A stretch of 64,000 nucleotides of DNA from IMG/VR virus record IMGVR_UViG_3300026311_000001, positions 19,873 to 83,872 of that record. One strand, 5' to 3'. The DNA is from a virus. A program made the translations under genes and the position numbers. The notes beneath the pieces were generated by a model. It was not told where the DNA came from, did not search any database, and worked only from the letters and a program-made list of their open reading frames with translations. Numbering within the stretch: position 1 is the first letter of the stretch; every line of letters begins with the position of its first letter. Below are positions 1,808 to 63,835 of the stretch, piece after piece.

Positions 1808-2866
1808 ATGATAGTCGTAGATAAGAAAGAATTGAATTTAGACACGCCGGTAACGCATAATGAACTATTGGTGTCTAAATGGATCTCAGATCAAAAAGAA
1901 AAAAGAGGTAATGATGCAGTCATAAAACTCATCGACATAACGCCTCTGAAGAAAAATCAACTTGTATTTAAGCAGCCGAAAGGATTTGACGTATCAGGGC
2001 ATAAGGTAAACAGTAAGACCGGTGTGAAAGAATACTGGATATACTGTGACCAGAATCCTAAAGTGTTGAAAAACGGAGAAAAGTATTATCCAAAGAAACA
2101 TTTAAGGTTTTTCCGGGAAGCAAGTTTCTCTTTAAACGGAGATGCCGCATTGCTATATTTCTTACTTGAAGTAGTAGATGTAAAACAGTTCGGTTTTATC
2201 GTAGAGGACAAAGAGGCAATGGCAAAGAAAAAGCTTGACATGAGAAGAAATGCCTCTATTGTTGAGAACATAATCCTTGAAAAGTTAACGAAAGAAGATG
2301 TCGTTAAGTTTGCCGGACGTTGGGGGATAAAAGTAGATGGCAAAGGAGATAACGAACTTCGTGATGAACTATGGGAAGCCATAAAAGTGATGAATGAAAA
2401 GGCAAGGAAATCCGGTGACGATGATAACAAGATTTTCAGGCAGTTTATTGCCGAGGCTAACAGTGACGGGACAATTGTAAAGGTAGGAATGTACTTCTAT
2501 AAAGCTTTAAAAGATAAGCTTATCTCGTTCAATCCGAACAACAGGACATATTTCTGGACGGACAGCCATGAAGTATTAGGAGGATATATCCCGCCGAATA
2601 TGATCCATTCAAAGGAAGAATATATTATCAACTTATTGACCAATGATGAAAAAGAAAGAAACCAATTTATGATGGTTTTAGGGGGAGAAGTCGATAAGGT
2701 AGCTGCTGACGCCGGGGATTATAAAATGATCAAATCGCCTATGGCAAAAAAGGCATGGGCTAAAAAACATCTCGGATTAGAAATTCCTTTGGTAAGACTT
2801 GAAGAAGGGGATAAGCTAATCGAGGAATTTTTGAATAAGAGCAAAGAACAAGTTCCGACAGAATAG
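1808..2866 (+). CDS. hypothetical protein (head module)
   Basis: 352-aa ORF, lysine-rich, no motif recognised. Confidence 0.5.
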   Translation: MIVVDKKELNLDTPVTHNELLVSKWISDQKEKRGNDAVIKLIDITPLKKNQLVFKQPKGFDVSGHKVNSKTGVKEYWIYCDQNPKVLKNGEKYYPKKHLRFFREASFSLNGDAALLYFLLEVVDVKQFGFIVEDKEAMAKKKLDMRRNASIVENIILEKLTKEDVVKFAGRWGIKVDGKGDNELRDELWEAIKVMNEKARKSGDDDNKIFRQFIAEANSDGTIVKVGMYFYKALKDKLISFNPNNRTYFWTDSHEVLGGYIPPNMIHSKEEYIINLLTNDEKERNQFMMVLGGEVDKVAADAGDYKMIKSPMAKKAWAKKHLGLEIPLVRLEEGDKLIEEFLNKSKEQVPTE

Positions 2867-2889
2867 TGTTTTGTTTTCGTTGGTTGTCA

Positions 2890-2922
2890 GTCCTCTTGTC
2901 TTTAAGATAAGGGGACTTTTTT
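2890..2922 (+). terminator. hairpin terminator
   Basis: GTCCTCTTGTC-tttaa-GATAAGGGGAC followed by TTTTTT. Confidence 0.55.
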
Positions 2923-2977
2923 GTAATAAAAATCCACGGTTCAGTTGACCGGGGATAAACTAACCGTTCCTTCAAAG

Positions 2978-4102
2978 TTATGAAATCTTACCAAGGTTAA
3001 ATTCCATTACTTCTTCTGGTTTGCAACAGGCACCGTAGAGTCCTGTAATAAATCGCAACAAAATATTCAAGGATGCATTCAAATCTGCGTTGTCCTCGTG
3101 GCTACATTTAAGACACCTGAATATCTCTAAGTTTCGATTCATCCTATCAGAATAACCACATTTCGGACAGGTTGTACTTGTATAAAACGGAGCTACAGTG
3201 CGAAACTTAACACGGTTAAGTTCACATGCCATTTCAAGCCGTTTCAACCAATACTTCCAATTCCAAATTCCAATAGAGCGTCTAATATTTTTAGTCAATA
3301 GACGTTTGACCTTTGTATTCTTTCCAAGATCCTTCAATTTTTCAACTACAATCATATCAGGATCAAGTTTAATTATCTCTTGGACTACTTCATCTATTCT
3401 TTGTTTTAAAGCTCTACGAGCCTGTTTCTGACCGTTTGAGCCATGCTTACATCTCTTTACTCTTTCAATACATGATTTAATGTCAGTACCAAGCTGTGTT
3501 CTATTTGAAAGAGATGCTAAAGCATTAATACCAGTATCAATACCCAAAACCTTGTTACCTTCTTTTTTAGGTAAAGTTTCAATTTCAAAACTAAACTGAA
3601 CATATCTATCTGTAATGATATATGAATTCAATCGTTTACCTTGCAGACTCAACTTATTAAAATGTTTGTGATATCTAATTGGTAAATCCATTATATGTTT
3701 ACCACCAACAGAAGCAACGTGCAACCAAGCATCAAATTCAACAGACTCCTTTGAATCTATCAAATCAGCGATAGTACAAGAAACATACATTCTTTTGCCT
3801 TTGTGAACAGGCATTACCATCTTATTTGGTTTATCTTTCCACCTTTCACGAGTAGCTTTGATCATATCAATCGCTTCACGGGCACAAACTTTCCGCAATC
3901 TTGCCGATAGCCACGTATCCTTTGGAAGATCAACTATATCTTTAAGCAATTCAGATTTGGATGGTAAGTTGCCATTCTCCCAGAAGTGCTTAATAAAGAC
4001 ATTACAAACCTTACCATATTCAGTAAGTATAGTTTGTAATTCTTCGATTTTAGATTTAGTAGCAAACTTTAAGCTACATTTAGTTGATCTTATCAGTTTC
4101 AT
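2978..4102 (-). CDS. tnpB: TnpB-like RuvC nuclease (IS607-associated type)
   Basis: RuvC-I VLGIDTGINALASLS, RuvC-II MIVVEKLKDL, zinc ribbon CPKCG..CLKC, RuvC-III DNADLNASLNI. Confidence 0.85.
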   Translation of the reverse strand: MKLIRSTKCSLKFATKSKIEELQTILTEYGKVCNVFIKHFWENGNLPSKSELLKDIVDLPKDTWLSARLRKVCAREAIDMIKATRERWKDKPNKMVMPVHKGKRMYVSCTIADLIDSKESVEFDAWLHVASVGGKHIMDLPIRYHKHFNKLSLQGKRLNSYIITDRYVQFSFEIETLPKKEGNKVLGIDTGINALASLSNRTQLGTDIKSCIERVKRCKHGSNGQKQARRALKQRIDEVVQEIIKLDPDMIVVEKLKDLGKNTKVKRLLTKNIRRSIGIWNWKYWLKRLEMACELNRVKFRTVAPFYTSTTCPKCGYSDRMNRNLEIFRCLKCSHEDNADLNASLNILLRFITGLYGACCKPEEVMEFNLGKIS

Positions 4103-4372
4103 ACATATACAACGTCTTTAAGACCACCTATATGTTGGTGTTGATTCACATCGGGATTGTTACAATCCAGTACTTTATCCACAACACTGAGAGTTTCCTC
4201 TCTGTTTAATTGTGAATTTGTAGAGCAAAGAACTTGTGAAGCATTCTCTGGTACGTTTTTTAACTCTAATTGTAACTTCTGCATAAATTTTAATTTTTAA
4301 GCTCCCTAATCAACTCTTACGTTGTGCATCACTACACAAGCCCCTTGATCTTCAGTCAAGGGGTAATTGACT
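4103..4372 (-). ncRNA. HEARO/IscB-omega-RNA-like structured RNA candidate, copy 1
   Basis: About 70% identical over ~270 nt to 25823-26100. Differences keep the hairpins intact (CCCCTTGA..TCAAGGGG here, CCCTTCCC..GGGAAGGG there). ORF 4099..4284 is probably not coding. Confidence 0.4.
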
Positions 4373-4789
4373 TTGTTTCTTTTTCCTATTTTCAGCACTT
4401 CTTTTGCCATAAACTTTTGATGATGTTGAAGCAACCAATGACATAATATCTTCAACCAATTCAGCTTCAAAAGACTTTGGTAATGTTTCTTCTAATATAA
4501 CAACATCTACTCCATGACTACTGAAAAACCTTTGATAAACTGCAAAGTTAAACCTTGTCAATCTATCTTTATGTTCAACAATAACTTTATTAATCTTGTG
4601 TTTTTCTGCAATATCTAATAGTTTATGTAATTTAACTCTTGTATCTGACATTCCAGAACCAACTTCTTCAAAGATGAAATCAACTTGATATTTCTTTTTA
4701 ACGCAATATTCAAGCAGTCTACCTTTCTGTCTATCTAAATCACCTTTTTGTTTCTGTTCATGGGAAGATACTCTACAATAAACCCTTAT
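4352..4789 (-). pseudogene. tnpA: IS607-type serine recombinase TnpA, N-terminally truncated (no HTH domain, no ATG)
   Basis: In-frame extension upstream of ORF 4352..4651 reads ..IRVYCRVSSHEQKQKGDLDRQKGRLLEYC.. (catalytic Ser motif). The frame closes at 4835-4837 with no ATG. Confidence 0.75.
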
Positions 4790-5106
4790 TTCTTGTTTGC
4801 GCCGGTAACTTTTGCGGCCATGTTCAATACAAAATCATCCCATGTCCAATCTGTTTCCTTTGCAATTTTCTGTCCTAACCTTACAACAGCCTGAAGTGCT
4901 TCTTTTGCTTCGGGATTCAATTCATCCATCTTACCCAGGTAGTCAGAAACAATAGCGTTGTAATCAGAAATACTCGAAACAACATTGTTGTCAACTTCTG
5001 TTTTGGTTTTGTCGATAATGAAAGCTCCGACAATAAGCAGATCTTGTCCAATTTCGCTATTAAGAATAGCTTTAAATTCTTCGGGAGTTAATTTAATCTT
5101 ACCCAT
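4786..5106 (-). CDS. hypothetical protein
   Basis: 106-aa ORF; the IS607-like element abuts its stop codon. Confidence 0.5.
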   Translation of the reverse strand: MGKIKLTPEEFKAILNSEIGQDLLIVGAFIIDKTKTEVDNNVVSSISDYNAIVSDYLGKMDELNPEAKEALQAVVRLGQKIAKETDWTWDDFVLNMAAKVTGANKK

Positions 5107-5289
5107 AAAAGTACTTTTTTGATTATTAATAGAAATTATAGATCGTTATAACGTGTACAAGGTACGAAAAAAATTGAATAAATAGTTTGTTTATGTAAAA
5201 AATGTATTATAGTTGTGTCGTTATAGCACACATATTAATGAGAAGATTTCGTGAAGATTTCTTGTAATATATTAAGCCTTATTGATTTT

Positions 5290-5577
5290 TCAGTAAGGCT
5301 TTTTAATGTTTTTATTAATAGAATCGTTAACCTTTCGTATAATTGACTTGTCAGATTTAAGATCCCGGTGTATAATTCCTACGCCTCCCAAGATTGTAAA
5401 TCCGAAGTTCATCGCTTCCAGAACATCGGGATCAACATTGTTTTTTACGACTGCCAATTGACAGGCTCCTAATCCGATAATGGATATTGCAGATTTTTTA
5501 CCATTAAACCATCTGCCAGCTTTTACAACACCTGACCAAACTTTCTGACCAAATGTCTTTTGGGGTTCTTGTGTCAT
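5290..5577 (-). CDS. small membrane protein, holin candidate
   Basis: Two hydrophobic segments (ISIIGLGACQLAVV, FGFTILGGVGII); directly downstream of the lysozyme gene, which its start overlaps. Confidence 0.35.
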   Translation of the reverse strand: MTQEPQKTFGQKVWSGVVKAGRWFNGKKSAISIIGLGACQLAVVKNNVDPDVLEAMNFGFTILGGVGIIHRDLKSDKSIIRKVNDSINKNIKKPY

Positions 5578-19365: not shown

Positions 19366-20168
19366 AAAAAGTTTCCTTAATAGTTAACCATTTTGAGAGA
19401 TTCGTTCAACTAAAAAGAACGTTATCTTCTATAAAGAAAAGTGCGTATGACAATCTGTATGTGGTGGTTTTAGATCATGATAGTCCTAATTGGAATGTTC
19501 ATATCAGTGAATTAAAAAAAACATATCCTGATTATGAATTTATGTCAATTCCTAAGCCAGACAAAAACAATTGGTATAGCATAATAGTAACATATAATTG
19601 GTGCATGAAGTATGTTCTTGACAATGTAAAACCAGATGTGTTTATGTTACAAGATGCAGAGTGCTATCACGTTGGAGATATTATAAGCAGGGCCAGTGAG
19701 GTTGAAGAAGCCGAATATATATCTTTTTCCTGTTTTTCTACTGATGAAGAAACTTACAAAAGGACTGATTTTGAACAAGTAATTGAAGGGATAGCCATAT
19801 CATGTGAAAAAGAAGTGTGGGCTAACGGGGTGAATGCATGGTATAATCACCCGATTTATAGAGGTGTTGGATATGGATTTTGCTGTGCAATGACGGCAGA
19901 CACAATGAGAAAGTTAAATGGATTTGATGAAAGATATAAAGATGGTGTTGCATATGGTGACGATGATTTTGTAAGAAGGGTAAAGGCATTAGATCTGAAA
20001 ATTACAATGCCTTTAACTCCATTTGTTGTTCACCAGTGGCACTACGATAAAACCTATATAATAAAAGATGAACTGCTAAGAAAAAACAGGGATGTCTATA
20101 TTGAGATAGGCCAAGAAGAAAAACATTATAAAGCTATTCACTTGATAACACCAAATTTTTATGAGTAA
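19362..20168 (+). CDS. glycosyltransferase family 2-like
   Basis: SLIVNHFER..VVVLDHDS N-terminal pattern, later GDDDF. Confidence 0.5.
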   Translation: MKKVSLIVNHFERFVQLKRTLSSIKKSAYDNLYVVVLDHDSPNWNVHISELKKTYPDYEFMSIPKPDKNNWYSIIVTYNWCMKYVLDNVKPDVFMLQDAECYHVGDIISRASEVEEAEYISFSCFSTDEETYKRTDFEQVIEGIAISCEKEVWANGVNAWYNHPIYRGVGYGFCCAMTADTMRKLNGFDERYKDGVAYGDDDFVRRVKALDLKITMPLTPFVVHQWHYDKTYIIKDELLRKNRDVYIEIGQEEKHYKAIHLITPNFYE

Positions 20169-24119: not shown

Positions 24120-24140
24120 AGGTTTTATCCCCTCGCCAAA

Positions 24141-24176
24141 GAAGACCCTCTCCTTTAGGGGAGGGATGAATTTGGC
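24141..24176 (-). repeat. end-hairpin module, copy 3 (right end of IscB-type element)
   Basis: GCCAAATTCATCCCTCCCCTAAAGGAGAGGGTCTTC aligns with CCAAGTCAATCACCCTTCCCTAAAGGGGAAGGGCTTG (26095..26060) and with copy 1 at 4366..4331. Confidence 0.5.
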
Positions 24177-24182
24177 TATTTT

Positions 24183-24328
24183 TTAATTCCATATTAAACC
24201 ACCTTGATTATAATATTTTTCTATGTCTTTTGTCTTAAAATATTCTTTAAGTTTTGTTGAACCATAGCAAATATATTTACCATAGCTGAACATTCCTTTA
24301 CAGATATATTTTTTTCCTTTAACCCAAA
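24183..24328 (-). pseudogene. possible IscB C-terminal fragment
   Basis: ..LWVKGKKYICKG..GKYICYGSTKLKEYF..KYYNQGGLIWN*. The ending resembles IscB C-termini as I recall them (..NNGGLQIYV); weak. Confidence 0.25.
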
Positions 24329-24380
24329 GTGAACTACCCACCCACAGCAAAGCTGATGAGTGGGCTTTCGCTCCTAATGT
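24329..24380 (-). mobile_element. 52-nt miniature element (single hairpin + TAGTTCAC end)
   Basis: ACATTAGGAGCGAAAGCCCACTCATCAGCTTTGCTGTGGGTGGGTAGTTCAC, preceded by TTTAC; 50 nt (24337-24386, spanning its hairpin, left end and adjacent TAM flank) identical to 25703-25752. Confidence 0.5.
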
Positions 24381-24444
24381 GTAAAAAGAGCTGGCTCTGT
24401 TTAAGAAGACAACCAGTGACTCCATTAGGTGAAATTGTGGGGCA

Positions 24445-24590
24445 GTGAACTACCCACCCACGCCAAAGGCGATGGGATGGGCTTCATGGGTCAAAGCTCC
24501 TTCTACTGAAGGCAACGTACCATGATTTTTTAGTGTATGTTCCGTACACAAATGATTGTTTAAAGCAAAATTTTTGATATTTATGGAAGC
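24445..24590 (-). ncRNA. omega-RNA (reRNA) scaffold of element 1, extent approximate
   Basis: The 3' end of tnpB plus the right end form hairpins (CCTTCAGTAGAAGG; CCCAUCCCAUCGC/GCGUGGGUGGG with two bulged U). Guide would be TGCCCCACAATTTCACCTAA (24444..24425). Confidence 0.5.
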
Positions 24591-25628
24591 GTTTAAATCC
24601 CGGTCAAGAACAGAACCACACTCAGGACAAGACCATTCACGGTCTTTGAGTGTAAGTTCTTTGTTGATATACCCACAGCCTGAGCATGTTTTCGAGCTGG
24701 GTTCAAACCTTCCAATGCGAAGTATATTAACTCCGCTCCATTTTGCTTTATATTCAAGCATGGTTACAAACATTCCCCAACTGGCATCTGAAATAGAACC
24801 AGCTAAACGATGGTTTTTTACCATACCTTTAATGTTTAAGTCTTCCAAAGCAATAGATTGGTTCTCTCGTATTAACTCCGTGCTAACTTTATGCAGAAAA
24901 TCATTTCTTTGGTTTGCTACTTTTTCATGTAACAAAGCAACTTTATGTTTACGCCTTTTCCCTTTATTTTTTGAATACTGGCGTTGGTTGTATTTTAGTT
25001 TATCCTGTGCTTTACGTAGGTATTTAGGGTTATCATATTCTTCACCATTTGAAGAAACTATATATGATTTGATTCCTAAATCTAACCCTACCGTTGTTTC
25101 TTCTTTTATTGGTTGTGATTGTTTTTCAACCTCGCCTGTTTCACATAGAATAGAAACAAAATATTTACCTGTTGGTGTACGGCTTATTGTAGCCTGTTTA
25201 ATATCTCCTTTTATAGGTCGATGTAGGATAACCTTAATACCTTTTTTAAATTTAGGTATGAATATCCTATCACCATCTAAGCGTACTGATTGCGGTATAT
25301 TAAAAGACTGCTTACCCCTACCTTTTTTCTTAAACTTGGGGAAATCATTTTGCGCTTTAAAAAAGGCTGTATATGCTTTATCTAAATTTGTTATTGACTG
25401 TTGCAAGGATTGGCTATTAACCTCTTTCAACCATTCGTATTCATTTTTTAGATTAGTTAATCTTTTATGTAGCGCAAATAAAGAATGGTTTGTCTTATCT
25501 TTAGCGTATTCAGTCTGCTTAAAAGCCAAAGCGTTATTATACACAAACCTTGCACAACCAATATGCTTATTGATTAACTCAGCTTGCGGGGCTGTTGGTG
25601 ATATTTTGTATTTATACGCTCTTAACAT
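24450..25628 (-). CDS. tnpB: TnpB RuvC nuclease
   Basis: MLRAYKYKISPT.., VGLDLGIKSY, IALEDLNIKGM, CSGCGY..CPECG, DRDLNASINI. Confidence 0.9.
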   Translation of the reverse strand: MLRAYKYKISPTAPQAELINKHIGCARFVYNNALAFKQTEYAKDKTNHSLFALHKRLTNLKNEYEWLKEVNSQSLQQSITNLDKAYTAFFKAQNDFPKFKKKGRGKQSFNIPQSVRLDGDRIFIPKFKKGIKVILHRPIKGDIKQATISRTPTGKYFVSILCETGEVEKQSQPIKEETTVGLDLGIKSYIVSSNGEEYDNPKYLRKAQDKLKYNQRQYSKNKGKRRKHKVALLHEKVANQRNDFLHKVSTELIRENQSIALEDLNIKGMVKNHRLAGSISDASWGMFVTMLEYKAKWSGVNILRIGRFEPSSKTCSGCGYINKELTLKDREWSCPECGSVLDRDLNASINIKNFALNNHLCTEHTLKNHGTLPSVEGALTHEAHPIAFGVGG

Positions 25629-25747
25629 ATTGCAAATATACAAAATTTACAGAAACATACTAATTAATTTAAATAAATTATCTTGTATTGGGTCGCTTTT
25701 ATCCCACCCACAGCAAAGCTGATGAGTGGGCTTTCGCTCCTAATGTG

Positions 25748-25822: not shown

Positions 25823-26100
25823 CGTGTTCTGTTTCCGATTTGACTCGGATTGATCCCCATCGGGATTGTTTAAGAACCGTTTGTCATTTTTCAGACCAAT
25901 CTCAACACTAAGAGTTTCCTCTTTGTTTAATTGAGAATTCACAGAGCAAAGGACTTGGGAAGTATCCCCTGGTGTGTTCTTTAACTTTTTCTTAAACTTC
26001 TGCATAAAACCTCTATTAAAATTTTAAGCTCCCTAATCAACCAATTACCCTTGAAAGTCACCTCTCAAGCCCTTCCCCTTTAGGGAAGGGTGATTGACTT
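25823..26100 (-). ncRNA. HEARO/IscB-omega-RNA-like structured RNA candidate, copy 2
   Basis: Immediately 5' of the PLMP fragment, as expected for IscB omega-RNA; homologous to 4103-4372 with hairpin covariation. Confidence 0.45.
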
Positions 26101-27174
26101 GGCCATTACAAATTTTCCATTTTTTAGCATATAAAACGTATCTGCCTTTATCTTTTTACCATCAACCTTTGCGGTCTTTACCGATTTTAACTCCCATCCA
26201 TAACTATTTTGAACCCATTCTGAAAGCGTTATCCAACAATTTAACGGTGCTTTAGCTTTGTTTTTTATCCCGAATCCTACTGCCATAGAATGATTACTAT
26301 CAATTCCCGTGATAGATGATTCAGATTCATAACCTGTCGTGGTCGATACAGTACCTATACCTGATGCCTGTGAGACTGAACTGTAACCTGATGCCTGTGA
26401 GGCTGAACTGTAACCTGATGCCTGTGAGGCTGACCTGTCACCTGATGCCTGTGAGGCTGACCTGTAACCTGATGCCTGTGAGGCTGAACTGTCACCTGAT
26501 GCCTGTGAGGCTGACCTGTCACCTAATGCCTGTGAGGCTGACCTGTCACCTGATGCCTGTGAGGCTGACCTGCCACCTGATGCCTGTGAGGCTGAACTGT
26601 CACCTGATGCCTGTGAGGCTGACCTGTCACCTGATGCCTGTGAGGCTGACCTGTCACCTGATGCCTGTGAGGCTGACCTGTCACCTGATGCCTGTGAGGC
26701 TGAACTGTCACCTGATGCCTGTGAGACTGAACTGTAACCTGATGCCTGTGAGGCTGAACTGTAACCTGATGCCTGTGAGGCTGACCTGTCACCTGATGCC
26801 TGTGAGGCTGACCTGTCACCTGATGTACTGTTTTCTTTAGTCCATGTAACTTTATCAAATATAAATTTAATTGCACATTCGACTAATGTTTTTATACTTA
26901 TCTCCGTTTCCACGTGTATCTTAGATGAAGCTATTTTTGAATCATCATTTCCTTTGTCAATCTTACCATCTACTTTACAAATGGCAAACCTGTTATTAGC
27001 CGGAGGATAATAATTGAACACATCCAACGGATATTCGCATGAATGAAATCCTTTATTCGTACACTGTACTGGTGTTTCATCCATTTCATAAGTTTTACCA
27101 ATTTCATACTGAAATTCATTCTCATTTGGAGAACATTTTAAATCTTTGGCAAATCCTTTGTACGTAGTTTTCAT
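26080..27174 (-). CDS. repeat protein with 17 tandem nonapeptides SGDRSASQA
   Basis: Start MKTTYKGF (27174) more likely than 27210. Cys/His-containing N-terminal domain, 17 x 9-aa repeats, conserved C-terminal domain. Confidence 0.6.
   Translation of the reverse strand: MKTTYKGFAKDLKCSPNENEFQYEIGKTYEMDETPVQCTNKGFHSCEYPLDVFNYYPPANNRFAICKVDGKIDKGNDDSKIASSKIHVETEISIKTLVECAIKFIFDKVTWTKENSTSGDRSASQASGDRSASQASGYSSASQASGYSSVSQASGDSSASQASGDRSASQASGDRSASQASGDRSASQASGDSSASQASGGRSASQASGDRSASQALGDRSASQASGDSSASQASGYRSASQASGDRSASQASGYSSASQASGYSSVSQASGIGTVSTTTGYESESSITGIDSNHSMAVGFGIKNKAKAPLNCWITLSEWVQNSYGWELKSVKTAKVDGKKIKADTFYMLKNGKFVMAKSITLP
26360..26826. repeat. 27-bp tandem repeat, about 17 copies
   Basis: CCTGATGCCTGTGAGGCTGA(A/C)CTGT(A/C)A units; open in several frames on both strands. 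Confidence 0.9.
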
Positions 27175-27197
27175 AGTGTTATTGATTAAAGTTGTTT

Positions 27198-28489
27198 GTA
27201 AACTACCCACCCACGCAAAGCGATGGGATGGGCTTTAAACCTGACAACGAATGCAAAGAGCAATACATAGTCGATTTTTCAGCAGAATTTACGGTCTGCC
27301 CAAGCAAAGAGATAACTTTAGAAGCGTTATAATCAGCGTCTATGGTATCTACATTGCAGTTTGTGTTTGTGCATTTAAACACTTTGTTTGTTCGTTTGCC
27401 AATATGTTTACATTCACAGCAAGTCTGCGAACTGTAAGCAGGATTGACCACAACAAGTTTAATCCCATTGAGCAAAGCCTTATATTCAAGTTTTACTCTC
27501 AAATCTGCAAAGTTCCATTTATTAAGTTTTGTCCTAAACTTTTTGTTTCTCCGTTTAGAAGTAAACCTGATATTGGTAAGGTCTTCAATGGAAATACCTT
27601 TACCCTGTTCTTTTGCAGATGCTACAATAGATTTACTTATTGTGTGGTTAATCAAATTAGCCGTTGTTCTTTCCTTGCCACTAAGCCGTTTAGACAACTT
27701 CCTGCAATTCCTTTTAGTGGAACGCTTAGAAGTGTCTGCCTTTGCCTGAATAGAACTACGAACTTTTTGCCGATGTTCACGATAAGTATTAAGCCACTCG
27801 GCAGAATGGTTAATACCATCAGAAGTTGCTATAATCGTTGTCAAACCAAAATCACAACCGATAAATTCCTCAATGTCTTTAACATCTTCTTCGGGAACGT
27901 CAACGGTCTGAAACAGGTAAAACTTGCCTTTCTTATAAACCAAATCCGCTTCACCTTTAATGTAAGGCAGGTAGTTTCTATTATGGCAAACAAAGGGAAC
28001 TTTAATCCTGCCACCGATAGCCCAAAGGGAAACAATATCGTTGGATTTGTAAGTCATAATCCTGCTATCATAACCAATGCTTCCAAGCGGTCTAAATTGT
28101 CTTTTGGTTTTCTTATCCAATTTGTAGCTATCAGCAACTTTTGCAATACATCTTACAAGAATTTGACTACTAAGTTTAAAAGTAGCCTTGTATTTATGAT
28201 AAACCTCGTGATGCAATTTAAAATTATTGAAAATACGCTTCTCACAAGCCACATCAGAAATGGCATTGCAAACAGCATTAGCTTCCTTCATCGTGTCGAG
28301 AAGCAAGTTAGCCTGTTCATCGGCAGGCAAAAGCTTTATTTTCAATGTCAACTTCATGGCACAAAGATACGAAATAATTTCACATATAAGAAAAATAATT
28401 ACTAATTTTGTTAAACAATTTAATTATGGAGCGACAATTCCTTCCATCGGCAGCAAAGCTGACCAATGGGTTTCCTTGCCGAAAAGCTT
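27198..28489 (-). mobile_element. TnpB-only IS200/IS605-like element 3
   Basis: Left-end hairpin CCATTGGTCAGC-tttg-CTGCCGATGG preceded by TTCAT; right-end hairpin + TAGTTTAC. In-silico excision restores a clean stop in the flanking ORF. Confidence 0.65.
27203..28357 (-). CDS. tnpB: TnpB RuvC nuclease (divergent from elements 1 and 2)
   Basis: FIGCDFGLTTIIATS, GISIEDLTNI, CCECKH..CTNTNC, DADYNASKVI. Confidence 0.85.
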   Translation of the reverse strand: MKLTLKIKLLPADEQANLLLDTMKEANAVCNAISDVACEKRIFNNFKLHHEVYHKYKATFKLSSQILVRCIAKVADSYKLDKKTKRQFRPLGSIGYDSRIMTYKSNDIVSLWAIGGRIKVPFVCHNRNYLPYIKGEADLVYKKGKFYLFQTVDVPEEDVKDIEEFIGCDFGLTTIIATSDGINHSAEWLNTYREHRQKVRSSIQAKADTSKRSTKRNCRKLSKRLSGKERTTANLINHTISKSIVASAKEQGKGISIEDLTNIRFTSKRRNKKFRTKLNKWNFADLRVKLEYKALLNGIKLVVVNPAYSSQTCCECKHIGKRTNKVFKCTNTNCNVDTIDADYNASKVISLLGQTVNSAEKSTMYCSLHSLSGLKPIPSLCVGG

Positions 28490-63096: not shown

Positions 63097-63780
63097 ATGA
63101 TTCAGCGAAAGAAAAAAATATGTAAAGATTGCAAAACGGAACAATACCTTTTCAGTCATGGCCGTTGCAAAAAATGTTTTCAATCATGGTGTTATTCTAC
63201 ACCTGAAGGACAGGAATATCTTAACCGTGTATGTTTAAAAGCAAAAAATAAAGTCAGGATAGAGGGGAAGAAAGAAACTCAGGAAAAAAAAGTTGAATTG
63301 ATGTCTTGCGATGAATACCGTAAAAAATATGTTCAGCCGATTTTTAATGAAATAGCCAGATTGATTGATTACGGCCAACCTTGTATAGCAACCGGAAAGT
63401 TCGGAGGTAAGTTAAATGGAGGTCATTTTCATTCTGTTGGATCGAATAGAACCTTAGCCTTTCATCTCCATAATATTCATCTACAGTCAGAACATTCAAA
63501 CAGTTATAAAGGAGGCGATAACAATAGATACCGGGAAGGGTTAGTAAGGGAATACGGGCAAAAGTATGCTGATTATGTGGATTCATTAAAATCAATTCAA
63601 CCTATTAAACTCAGTAAATCAGATTTAATTGAGATTAAAAATATAGCTACAGTGATAAAGAATGAATTGAAAAATAATCCTGTAGTAATGACGGCACAGG
63701 AGAGAATAGAAATCCGGGATGAAATAAACAAAAGAATAGGGATTTATAAAACGGAGCGTAAAACCCAGTCATCGCTTTAG
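63097..63780 (+). CDS. NinG/Rap-like recombination endonuclease candidate; last ~11 codons supplied by the mini-element
   Basis: N-terminal CKDC..CKKC zinc cluster, GGHFHSVG..R..H..N..QSEHSN pattern. Confidence 0.4.
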   Translation: MIQRKKKICKDCKTEQYLFSHGRCKKCFQSWCYSTPEGQEYLNRVCLKAKNKVRIEGKKETQEKKVELMSCDEYRKKYVQPIFNEIARLIDYGQPCIATGKFGGKLNGGHFHSVGSNRTLAFHLHNIHLQSEHSNSYKGGDNNRYREGLVREYGQKYADYVDSLKSIQPIKLSKSDLIEIKNIATVIKNELKNNPVVMTAQERIEIRDEINKRIGIYKTERKTQSSL

Positions 63781-63835
63781 CGTGGATGCCGTGAAACCCG
63801 AAGCCCATTTGTCTTTAGCAAATGGGTAGTTCACA
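63748..63835 (+). mobile_element. 88-nt miniature element (two hairpins, no ORF) of the TAGTTCAC family
   Basis: TTTAT|AAAACGGAGCGTAAAACCCAGTCATCGCTTTAGCGTGGATG..CCCATTTGTCTTTAGCAAATGGGTAGTTCAC|; interrupts the right copy of the 171-bp repeat. Confidence 0.6.

Follow-up and report, generated by a model that had tools for sequence, protein, structure and literature searches.

An orphan HEARO RNA beside an IS607-type tnpB in a viral genome: probable remnant of one transposon nested in another

A HEARO scaffold between a recombinase remnant and tnpB

Here, we describe a locus in the IMG/VR virus record IMGVR_UViG_3300026311_000001 at which a structured RNA of the HEARO family (RF02033), the omega-RNA found with IscB, lies directly upstream of a tnpB gene of the IS607 type. 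The analysis covered 64,000 nucleotides of that record (positions 19,873 to 83,872), referred to below as the window, and all coordinates are those of the window. A preliminary description, made from the letters alone, had noticed this adjacency and offered two readings, namely a mini IscB-type element inserted between tnpA and tnpB, or a chimera of a TnpB nuclease and an omega-RNA-like module 5' of it. The features of this locus (locus 1) are as follows.

2926..2962, minus strand: 37-nt stretch of unassigned origin that separates the phage backbone from the right end of IS607; by position, it would be the guide of the TnpB omega-RNA
2963..3152, minus strand: 3' omega-RNA-like region of TnpB and right end of IS607 (...CTTTGAAGGAACGGT), intact in the window
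2978..4102, minus strand: intact IS607-type tnpB, 374 aa; Pfam PF07282 (Cas12f1-like_TNB), E 4.6e-17, and PF01385, E 5e-5
4098..4102, plus strand: TTCAT, candidate transposon-adjacent motif (TAM), reverse complement of the tnpB start ATGAA; adjoins the insert
4103..4371, minus strand: inserted block of 269 bp, holding the complete HEARO scaffold and the first ~3 codons of iscB, as delimited by alignment to contig L013
4371..4140, minus strand: HEARO copy 1 (RF02033), 117.3 bits against a gathering cut-off of 83, E 1.4e-23
4103..4139, minus strand: 3' tail of the omega-RNA, a hairpin CACC...GGTG (4140..4125) and then ..AAAGACGTTGTATATGT, the iscB start region (..DVVYV)
4284..4099, minus strand: open reading frame (ORF) of 61 codons, starting at ATGCAGAAG inside HEARO and ending in ..DVVYV
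4372..4387, minus strand: would-be 16-nt guide of the orphan omega-RNA (AGGAAAAAGAAACAAA), directly 5' of the HEARO scaffold and formed by the 3' end of the IS607 tnpA
4372..4784, minus strand: 5'-truncated IS607 tnpA, serine recombinase catalytic domain (Pfam Resolvase, E 8e-23)

The whole window was scanned with Rfam at the gathering cut-off. Exactly two matches were found, both to HEARO, both on the minus strand and both covering model positions 1-211, so that the HEARO-like RNA seen upstream of tnpB in the preliminary description is a full-model match. The homology noted there between the locus 1 block and a block at 25823-26100 is likewise real: the two blocks share 77% column identity in alignment, and both are HEARO. 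An RNAalifold consensus of five HEARO copies (the two in the window and the IscB-linked copies of the viral contigs L010, L011 and L019) contains 67 pairs, 30 of them compensatory. The locus 1 copy retains every helix of this consensus, including an extra 3' hairpin that itself covaries, with CACC/GGTG at locus 1 and GTTC/GAAC and TCCGA/TCGGA in other copies. By score and structure, the RNA at locus 1 is a bona fide HEARO/omega-RNA scaffold, and the feature is far beyond chance.

The RNA-protein unit is incomplete. No ORF for an IscB with RuvC and HNH domains directly follows the locus 1 HEARO, which is succeeded only by ~3 iscB codons, and a tblastn search of the window with the IscB proteins of L010 and L011 gave remnants but no intact IscB. 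The HEARO-iscB junctions of L019, L010, L011 and the second locus in the window (locus 2) match the 37-nt tail of the block in register, in the order covarying hairpin, A-rich stretch and TGT(G/A)TA(T/C)GT. In L010, L011 and L019, this last motif holds an in-frame GTG at the V of V(Y/F)V, which is a candidate iscB start. If this start is right, the block would retain about three IscB codons (GTA TAT GT), and tnpB begins 8 nt past the position of the IscB start rather than exactly at it, as had first been proposed. By its position next to the scaffold, AGGAAAAAGAAACAAA at 4372..4387 would take the role of the guide.

The reading frames on either side of the block are as previously described. 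The tnpA remnant has no helix-turn-helix (HTH) domain and no start codon ahead of the catalytic Ser; its frame runs into the block, where it ends in ..QSQLPLD with a stop (4354..4352) within the first HEARO hairpin. The 61-codon ORF ends in ..DVVYV, and its TGA (4101..4099) overlaps the ATG of tnpB (4102..4100).

This ORF has counterparts in the other HEARO copies. The RNA of this HEARO subfamily contains an invariant ATGCAG(A/C)AG (window 4284 and 26005, L010 551, L011 6538, L019 870, and also P0122), and the frame that begins there stays open and runs in frame into iscB in all six copies. Indels between copies of the subfamily are multiples of 3. At the V(Y/F)V position, the intact IscBs have the in-frame GTG, compared to GTA or GTT in the two orphan copies. 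The open frame within HEARO may encode an IscB N-terminal extension of ~60 aa from the protein's own guide RNA, or may be a by-product.

TnpB, its own 3' RNA and its relatives

An exact-protein look-up found the 374-aa TnpB on 14 contigs. In two of them, L013 and L014, the identical protein is encoded by a canonical IS607 element, which sits within a phage replication module and carries a 212-aa tnpA product with MerR and Resolvase domains whose gene overlaps tnpB by 23 nt. By blastn, the window is 100% identical to L013 over 1140 nt (4102..2963) and 99.8% identical over 413 nt (4784..4372). On the right side this identity stops at 2963, and within the element it breaks exactly at the first HEARO base (4372|4371). 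L013 reads ...GAAAATAGGAAAAAGAAACAAA|ATGAAACTGATAAG where the window reads ...AAACAAA|GTCAATTACCCC...GTTGTATATGT|ATGAAACTGATAAG, which places the insertion point in L013 at ...AAACAAA|ATGAAACTG, directly 5' of the tnpB ATG and within the last tnpA codons. The 269 nt from 4371 to 4103 are the sole difference at the junction, and the target is neither lost nor duplicated. Because the L013 flanks join without it, the HEARO block is a clean 269-bp insertion.

Four further contigs (L012, L015, L016 and L017) carry the block with 100% identity to the window, and the arrangement is unchanged in contigs of at least five samples. Given this complete identity, the block-bearing contigs represent one lineage and are not independent evidence. 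The recombinase with its MerR-type HTH domain stands next to tnpB in L013; in the window, tnpA is 5'-truncated and lies 269 nt away.

The TnpB translation shows the motifs GIDTG, VVEKL and DNADLNAS (RuvC-like core and zinc-finger TNB). The protein has 822 homologues at E <= 1e-5, and all 120 matches listed are at least 65% identical to it. A serine recombinase with a MerR-type HTH lies upstream of tnpB in 28 listed relative loci, some of which are repeat fetches of the same contig, and the two genes abut, overlap or lie 340-650 nt apart. The tnpB in the window is of the IS607 type.

The gene also retains the RNA expected of its own family. The hexamer AACGGT occurs at or just past the tnpB stop in 54 of the 60 relatives scanned (58 of 60 with four AACGAT copies), with unrelated sequence beyond it. 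For the last 190 nt before AACGGT in 34 sequences, RNAalifold gave 29 consensus pairs, 20 of them compensatory, and in one hairpin a single pair is changed on both sides in 18 sequences, despite the coding region. From this covariation, the conserved structure is predicted to be the expected TnpB omega-RNA overlapping the end of the ORF. IS607 omega-RNA scaffolds end in ...UCGG (Zedaveinyte et al., bioRxiv 10.1101/2023.11.20.567912), and the element end in the window (…GGAACGGT) is 100% identical to that of the canonical copy. When 2700..4900 was searched with Rfam by E-value for TnpB omega-RNA families already described (RAGATH-18, for example), nothing credible turned up except HEARO.

The 37-nt stretch beyond this end (2926..2962) is missing from L013 and from the same-phage variants L091 and L092, and it ends in TTTAT. 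A hairpin farther along, at 2917..2889, was considered as a candidate IscB far end and discarded: it forms an intrinsic terminator on the plus strand (stem and TTTTTTG) for the convergent gene of a 352-aa protein, and variants without the insert have it as part of the phage backbone.

Recurrence of the HEARO-tnpB adjacency was assessed in relatives of the TnpB. From IMG/VR, 9 loci were retrieved with a single-protein query and 59 with an alignment query, nine of which were repeat fetches of the same contigs; 7 loci came from the genome collection, and L013 and L018 from exact-protein look-ups with the window TnpB and its 97% identical relative P0001. Rfam was run at the gathering threshold on all non-duplicate loci, 9 + 58 in number, and ~56 distinct loci, at 49-97% identity, hold the tnpB start and at least 417 nt upstream of it. 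A HEARO upstream of tnpB was found in 0 of these ~56 relatives. The same RNA-tnpB adjacency is thus absent from them, and the block is not tied to tnpB elsewhere, as far as can be read from these sequences. A blastn search of 2700..5300 against 50,697 phage records gave no match, and no related phages were found in IMG/VR by way of the neighboring 352-aa protein.

Among the closest relatives, the 96% identical TnpB of L002 is encoded by a solo gene behind an unrelated gene, and L001 (84%) is a complete IS607 with an additional 139-aa ORF (2580..2999) between tnpA and tnpB. A segment of 340-650 nt between the two genes is present in L001, L004, L021, L035, L042, L048, L060, L065 and L082, none of them a HEARO, and extra DNA seems to settle repeatedly between tnpA and tnpB. 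The sole relative with a HEARO nearby is L082 (3658..3925, 107 bits), where the RNA follows tnpB on the same strand at a distance of ~985 nt and presumably belongs to an independent IscB element.

Origin of the block and alternative readings

In our interpretation, the block at 4371..4103 was left behind by an IscB-type IS200/IS605 element, of which it preserves one end, and sits nested within an IS607 copy that is itself decaying in the genome of a phage; we assign this reading a probability of about 0.85. The first reading of the preliminary description, an IscB-type insertion between tnpA and tnpB, is essentially borne out by L013 and L014, except that the inserted piece is one-ended and not a complete mini element. 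Its 5' edge is a normal HEARO-side transposon end. Its 3' edge lies ~3 codons into iscB, and an IscB-distal end is lacking. TTCAT, which adjoins the block, is the experimentally determined TAM of GstIscB/ISGst5 of Geobacillus stearothermophilus, where it lies 5' of the left end (Meers et al., bioRxiv 10.1101/2023.03.14.532601). According to the same study, HEARO abuts the right end of the transposon, the IscB guide lies outside that end, and iscB is not found with serine resolvases. ATGAA also occurs downstream of iscB in L011 and L019, at a plausible distance, and locus 2 has ATGAG.

Two steps would account for the block. First, a full HEARO-iscB element would have inserted 3' of TTCAT, a motif that the tnpB start ATGAA makes on the opposite strand. 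Later, iscB and the left (far) end would have been lost, with a deletion endpoint at or within ~3 nt of the TAM/left-end junction. The loss could have occurred through aberrant cleavage by a Y1 transposase at that junction or through a short-homology deletion, and either route would give the same result. Short-homology deletions are seen elsewhere in the surroundings of locus 1. Retro-insertion of an omega-RNA was considered as another origin and rejected, because no foreign guide precedes the scaffold.

The block resembles ISGst5, a non-autonomous IS200/IS605 element with IscB and omega-RNA, in its RNA family, in the position of the RNA at the transposon end with the guide outside, and in the neighboring TTCAT. 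It differs in that iscB is cut to ~3 codons, the far (left) end is gone and the host site is another transposon, an IS607. The surrounding element, in turn, resembles the IS607 arrangement of a serine tnpA and a tnpB with a 3' omega-RNA (Zedaveinyte et al., bioRxiv 10.1101/2023.11.20.567912; Karvelis et al. 2021, PMC8612924): its TnpB is identical to that of a canonical element, a structured 3' RNA overlaps the end of the ORF, and the scaffold ends in ..CGG. Unlike that arrangement, its tnpA is 5'-truncated and split from tnpB by a foreign 269-bp block, and for this reason the IS607 copy in the window is probably immobile. The adjacency of HEARO and tnpB is very probably an accident of this nesting, and TnpB, to judge from the sequence comparisons, would work, if at all, with its own 3' omega-RNA.

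Several points weigh against this interpretation. The expected intermediate, an IS607 that carries a complete iscB element at this junction, did not turn up. A search with the 61-aa peptide for the parental IscB returned only the peptide itself and one IscB fragment of 105 aa, at 68% identity, and a metagenome scan for the tnpA/HEARO junction (AGGAAAAAGAAACAAAGTCAAT) gave one chance match in an unrelated gene (L020). The motif TTCAT is borrowed from a Geobacillus element and may not be the TAM of this phage-borne IscB subfamily; locus 2 would give CTCAT. An empty site of the locus 2 IscB element, which would fix the TAM, was not found among its variants, which differ only in the nested tnpB. 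A deletion that ends 0-3 nt from the junction of element and flank is unlikely to arise by chance and needs a special mechanism. Finally, the structural perfection of the HEARO agrees with a recent origin, but selection would account for it as well.

Alternatively, the block could be a complete, protein-less element, inserted directly by a Y1 transposase and similar to the PATEs (palindrome-associated transposable elements), which derive from IS200/IS605 elements and encode no protein. The insertion is clean and adjoins TTCAT, and PATEs related to the IscB-bearing ISGst5 have been described (Meers et al., bioRxiv 10.1101/2023.03.14.532601). There is also a weak resemblance between the last ~13 nt of the block and the L011 far end (TAAAGATTTTGTA; shuffle p 0.07). 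Like a PATE, the block derives from an omega element and lacks a nuclease gene; a PATE has both hairpin ends, whereas the block has the HEARO side only. Its tail (4139..4103) is without the GC-rich hairpin of 8-9 bp found at the far ends of locus 2 (CCCTCCCCTAAAGGAGAGGG) and L011, and so the block is not a two-ended PATE. Instead, the tail is in register with HEARO-iscB junctions down to the VVYV codons. Neither the window nor the fetched loci yielded a second copy, nor did two pattern scans of IMG/VR, which looked for the conserved HEARO core and for the 3' end. We regard this explanation as unlikely, although it ranks next after the one-ended remnant that we favor.

A slightly smaller chance attaches to the possibility that the remnant is active in trans, as a hyperparasite of IS607. 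An omega-RNA made by read-through, with AGGAAAAAGAAACAAA as guide, would be loaded by an IscB from elsewhere (from the host, a co-infecting phage or the part of this phage beyond the window) and would cut uninterrupted tnpA/tnpB junctions, which contain the target followed by ATGAA; other IS607 copies would then acquire the block during recombinational repair. The scaffold is intact, the guide together with ATGAA matches the uninterrupted L013 junction exactly, and the same subfamily has intact HEARO-IscB elements in L010, L011 and L019, which are other viral contigs. No minus-strand terminator-like site was found across the scanned region, which includes the upstream lysis-module genes, the block and tnpB, so that none separates the block from the genes upstream. 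Promoter-like sites in this region are no commoner than in shuffled sequences and none lies inside the block, and the HEARO RNA could presumably arise only by read-through from upstream phage genes, with no cognate protein in the window. Against trans activity stand this lack of an IscB, the finding of the block at one genomic site only, and the canonical IS607 copies seen elsewhere (L013 and L014), all of which are without it. The intactness of the scaffold is also what would be expected of a very recent event, the flanks being 99.8-100% identical to the canonical copy. The block is a candidate substrate for tests of trans-acting homing by IscB.

We also consider it improbable, and by a shade more so, that the block has been exapted as a leader that drives tnpB expression, either through the ATGA-coupled 61-codon ORF or through an RNA structure that stabilizes the message. 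Such a leader would offset the lost coupling to tnpA: the tnpA start is gone, and with it the native coupling through the 23-nt overlap of L013. The overlap of TGA and ATG is present, and in 6/6 copies an ATG inside HEARO opens a frame into iscB. The overlap is automatic, however, because ...TATGT was inserted ahead of ATGA. The block contains no promoter-like site, region-wide counts are not above those of shuffles, and the comparison with relatives lends this reading no support.

The chimera of the preliminary description, in which TnpB uses the 5' HEARO RNA as guide RNA or cofactor, can practically be dismissed: although an intact RNA scaffold lies 38 nt from the tnpB ATG, tnpB stands almost where iscB would and the arrangement recurs across samples, the five contigs concerned are a single lineage, the identical TnpB exists without HEARO in L013 and L014, none of the relatives shares the adjacency, TnpB keeps the same covarying 3' RNA and element end as the canonical copy, and the polarity of the guides is opposite, with the guide 5' of the HEARO scaffold (Meers et al., bioRxiv 10.1101/2023.03.14.532601) and 3' of the TnpB scaffold (Zedaveinyte et al., bioRxiv 10.1101/2023.11.20.567912). 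If true, it would have linked the guide-RNA lineages of IscB/Cas9 and TnpB/Cas12.

An RNA module 5' of a TnpB had also been called unprecedented. IStrons combine a group I intron with tnpB inside IS605 or IS607 elements; their introns are conserved partners, and their interplay with TnpB and omega-RNA has been demonstrated. Since IStrons exist as true composites, the architecture of a 5' RNA and tnpB is not wholly without precedent. The likeness is that of a large structured RNA 5' of tnpB in one element; the HEARO at locus 1 differs in being lineage-specific and in showing no sign of partnership. A composite of HEARO and TnpB fits no conserved architecture, and the locus is a further case of known kinds, here nested, with an ordinary explanation.

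If the block is the nested remnant that we propose, locus 1 would be a natural example of one RNA-guided transposon that entered another by way of the TTCAT that a tnpB start codon supplies, and that later kept nothing but its RNA gene. It would also be a small data point on how orphans consisting only of omega-RNA arise. For genome-mining pipelines, the locus is a caution that adjacency alone is no proof of a guide RNA-nuclease pair.

Nested insertion and decay elsewhere in the window

The second HEARO in the window is orphaned as well, and its surroundings (locus 2) contain the following features.

26098..25848, minus strand: HEARO copy 2, Rfam 103.7 bits
25813..25747 and 24328..24183, minus strand: iscB remnants, N-terminal (22 codons) and C-terminal (last ~48 codons)
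25746..24381, minus strand: IS605-type tnpB element (Pfam HTH_OrfB_IS605, OrfB_IS605 and TNB), inserted after TTTTAC inside the iscB remnant
24380..24329, minus strand: 52-nt mini copy of the IS605-type tnpB element, followed by the ~48 iscB codons and the far end (24182..24120)

In the same-phage variant L096, only the 52-nt mini copy is present, without tnpB, and the insertion is therefore polymorphic. The adjacency of HEARO and tnpB has thus arisen twice in the window, by different routes. At the left boundary of locus 1, the backbone is joined inside tnpA through a 7-nt overlap, GGTTTAT (4778..4784), common to both. Polymorphic OMEGA relics abound in the phage genome, which has two orphan HEAROs, three tnpB genes and a number of mini elements; those at 24380..24329 and ~63,743..63,835 are true PATE-like elements. 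Nested insertions and microhomology deletions are found at locus 2 and at the 4784 junction, with polymorphism among L089, L091, L092 and L096. Nested insertion and decay by microhomology are the rule in this genome, and against this background an accidental adjacency of HEARO and tnpB is unsurprising.

The segment inserted at locus 1 has TTTAT at each of its two bounds and is itself preceded by TTTAT, the pentamer that serves as the TAM of GstTnpB2 (Meers et al., bioRxiv 10.1101/2023.03.14.532601). These bounds may reflect aberrant action of a Y1 transposase or recombination at microhomology. The site downstream of the gene for a 106-aa protein is a hotspot, with a 48-nt PATE-like element after GGGTTTAT in L091 and L092 and a different TnpB-like ORF in L089.

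Other observations concern the rest of the window and the relatives of the TnpB. The third TnpB (27203..28357, minus strand, 384 aa) has a TNB domain only and ends where a DUF7666 protein starts (GTG at 27210). The gene for the latter (26080..27210, minus strand) contains a long tandem repeat of the SGDRSASQA type, and its 3' end is overlapped by HEARO copy 2. In viral contigs, relatives of this tnpB often lie no more than ~1.5-3 kb from tRNA genes or arrays (L009, L021, L027, L042, L045, L064, L072, L073 and L084), with 13 tRNA matches in L009 and 4 each in L042 and L064. The PATE-like mini IS605 element at ~63,743..63,835 is ~90 nt long, lies on the plus strand and reads TTTAT|AAAACGGAGCGTAAAACCC...AAATGGGTAGTTCAC. 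Its terminal motif, GGGTAGTTCAC, recurs in the window at 24340, 24456, 30596 and 62586.

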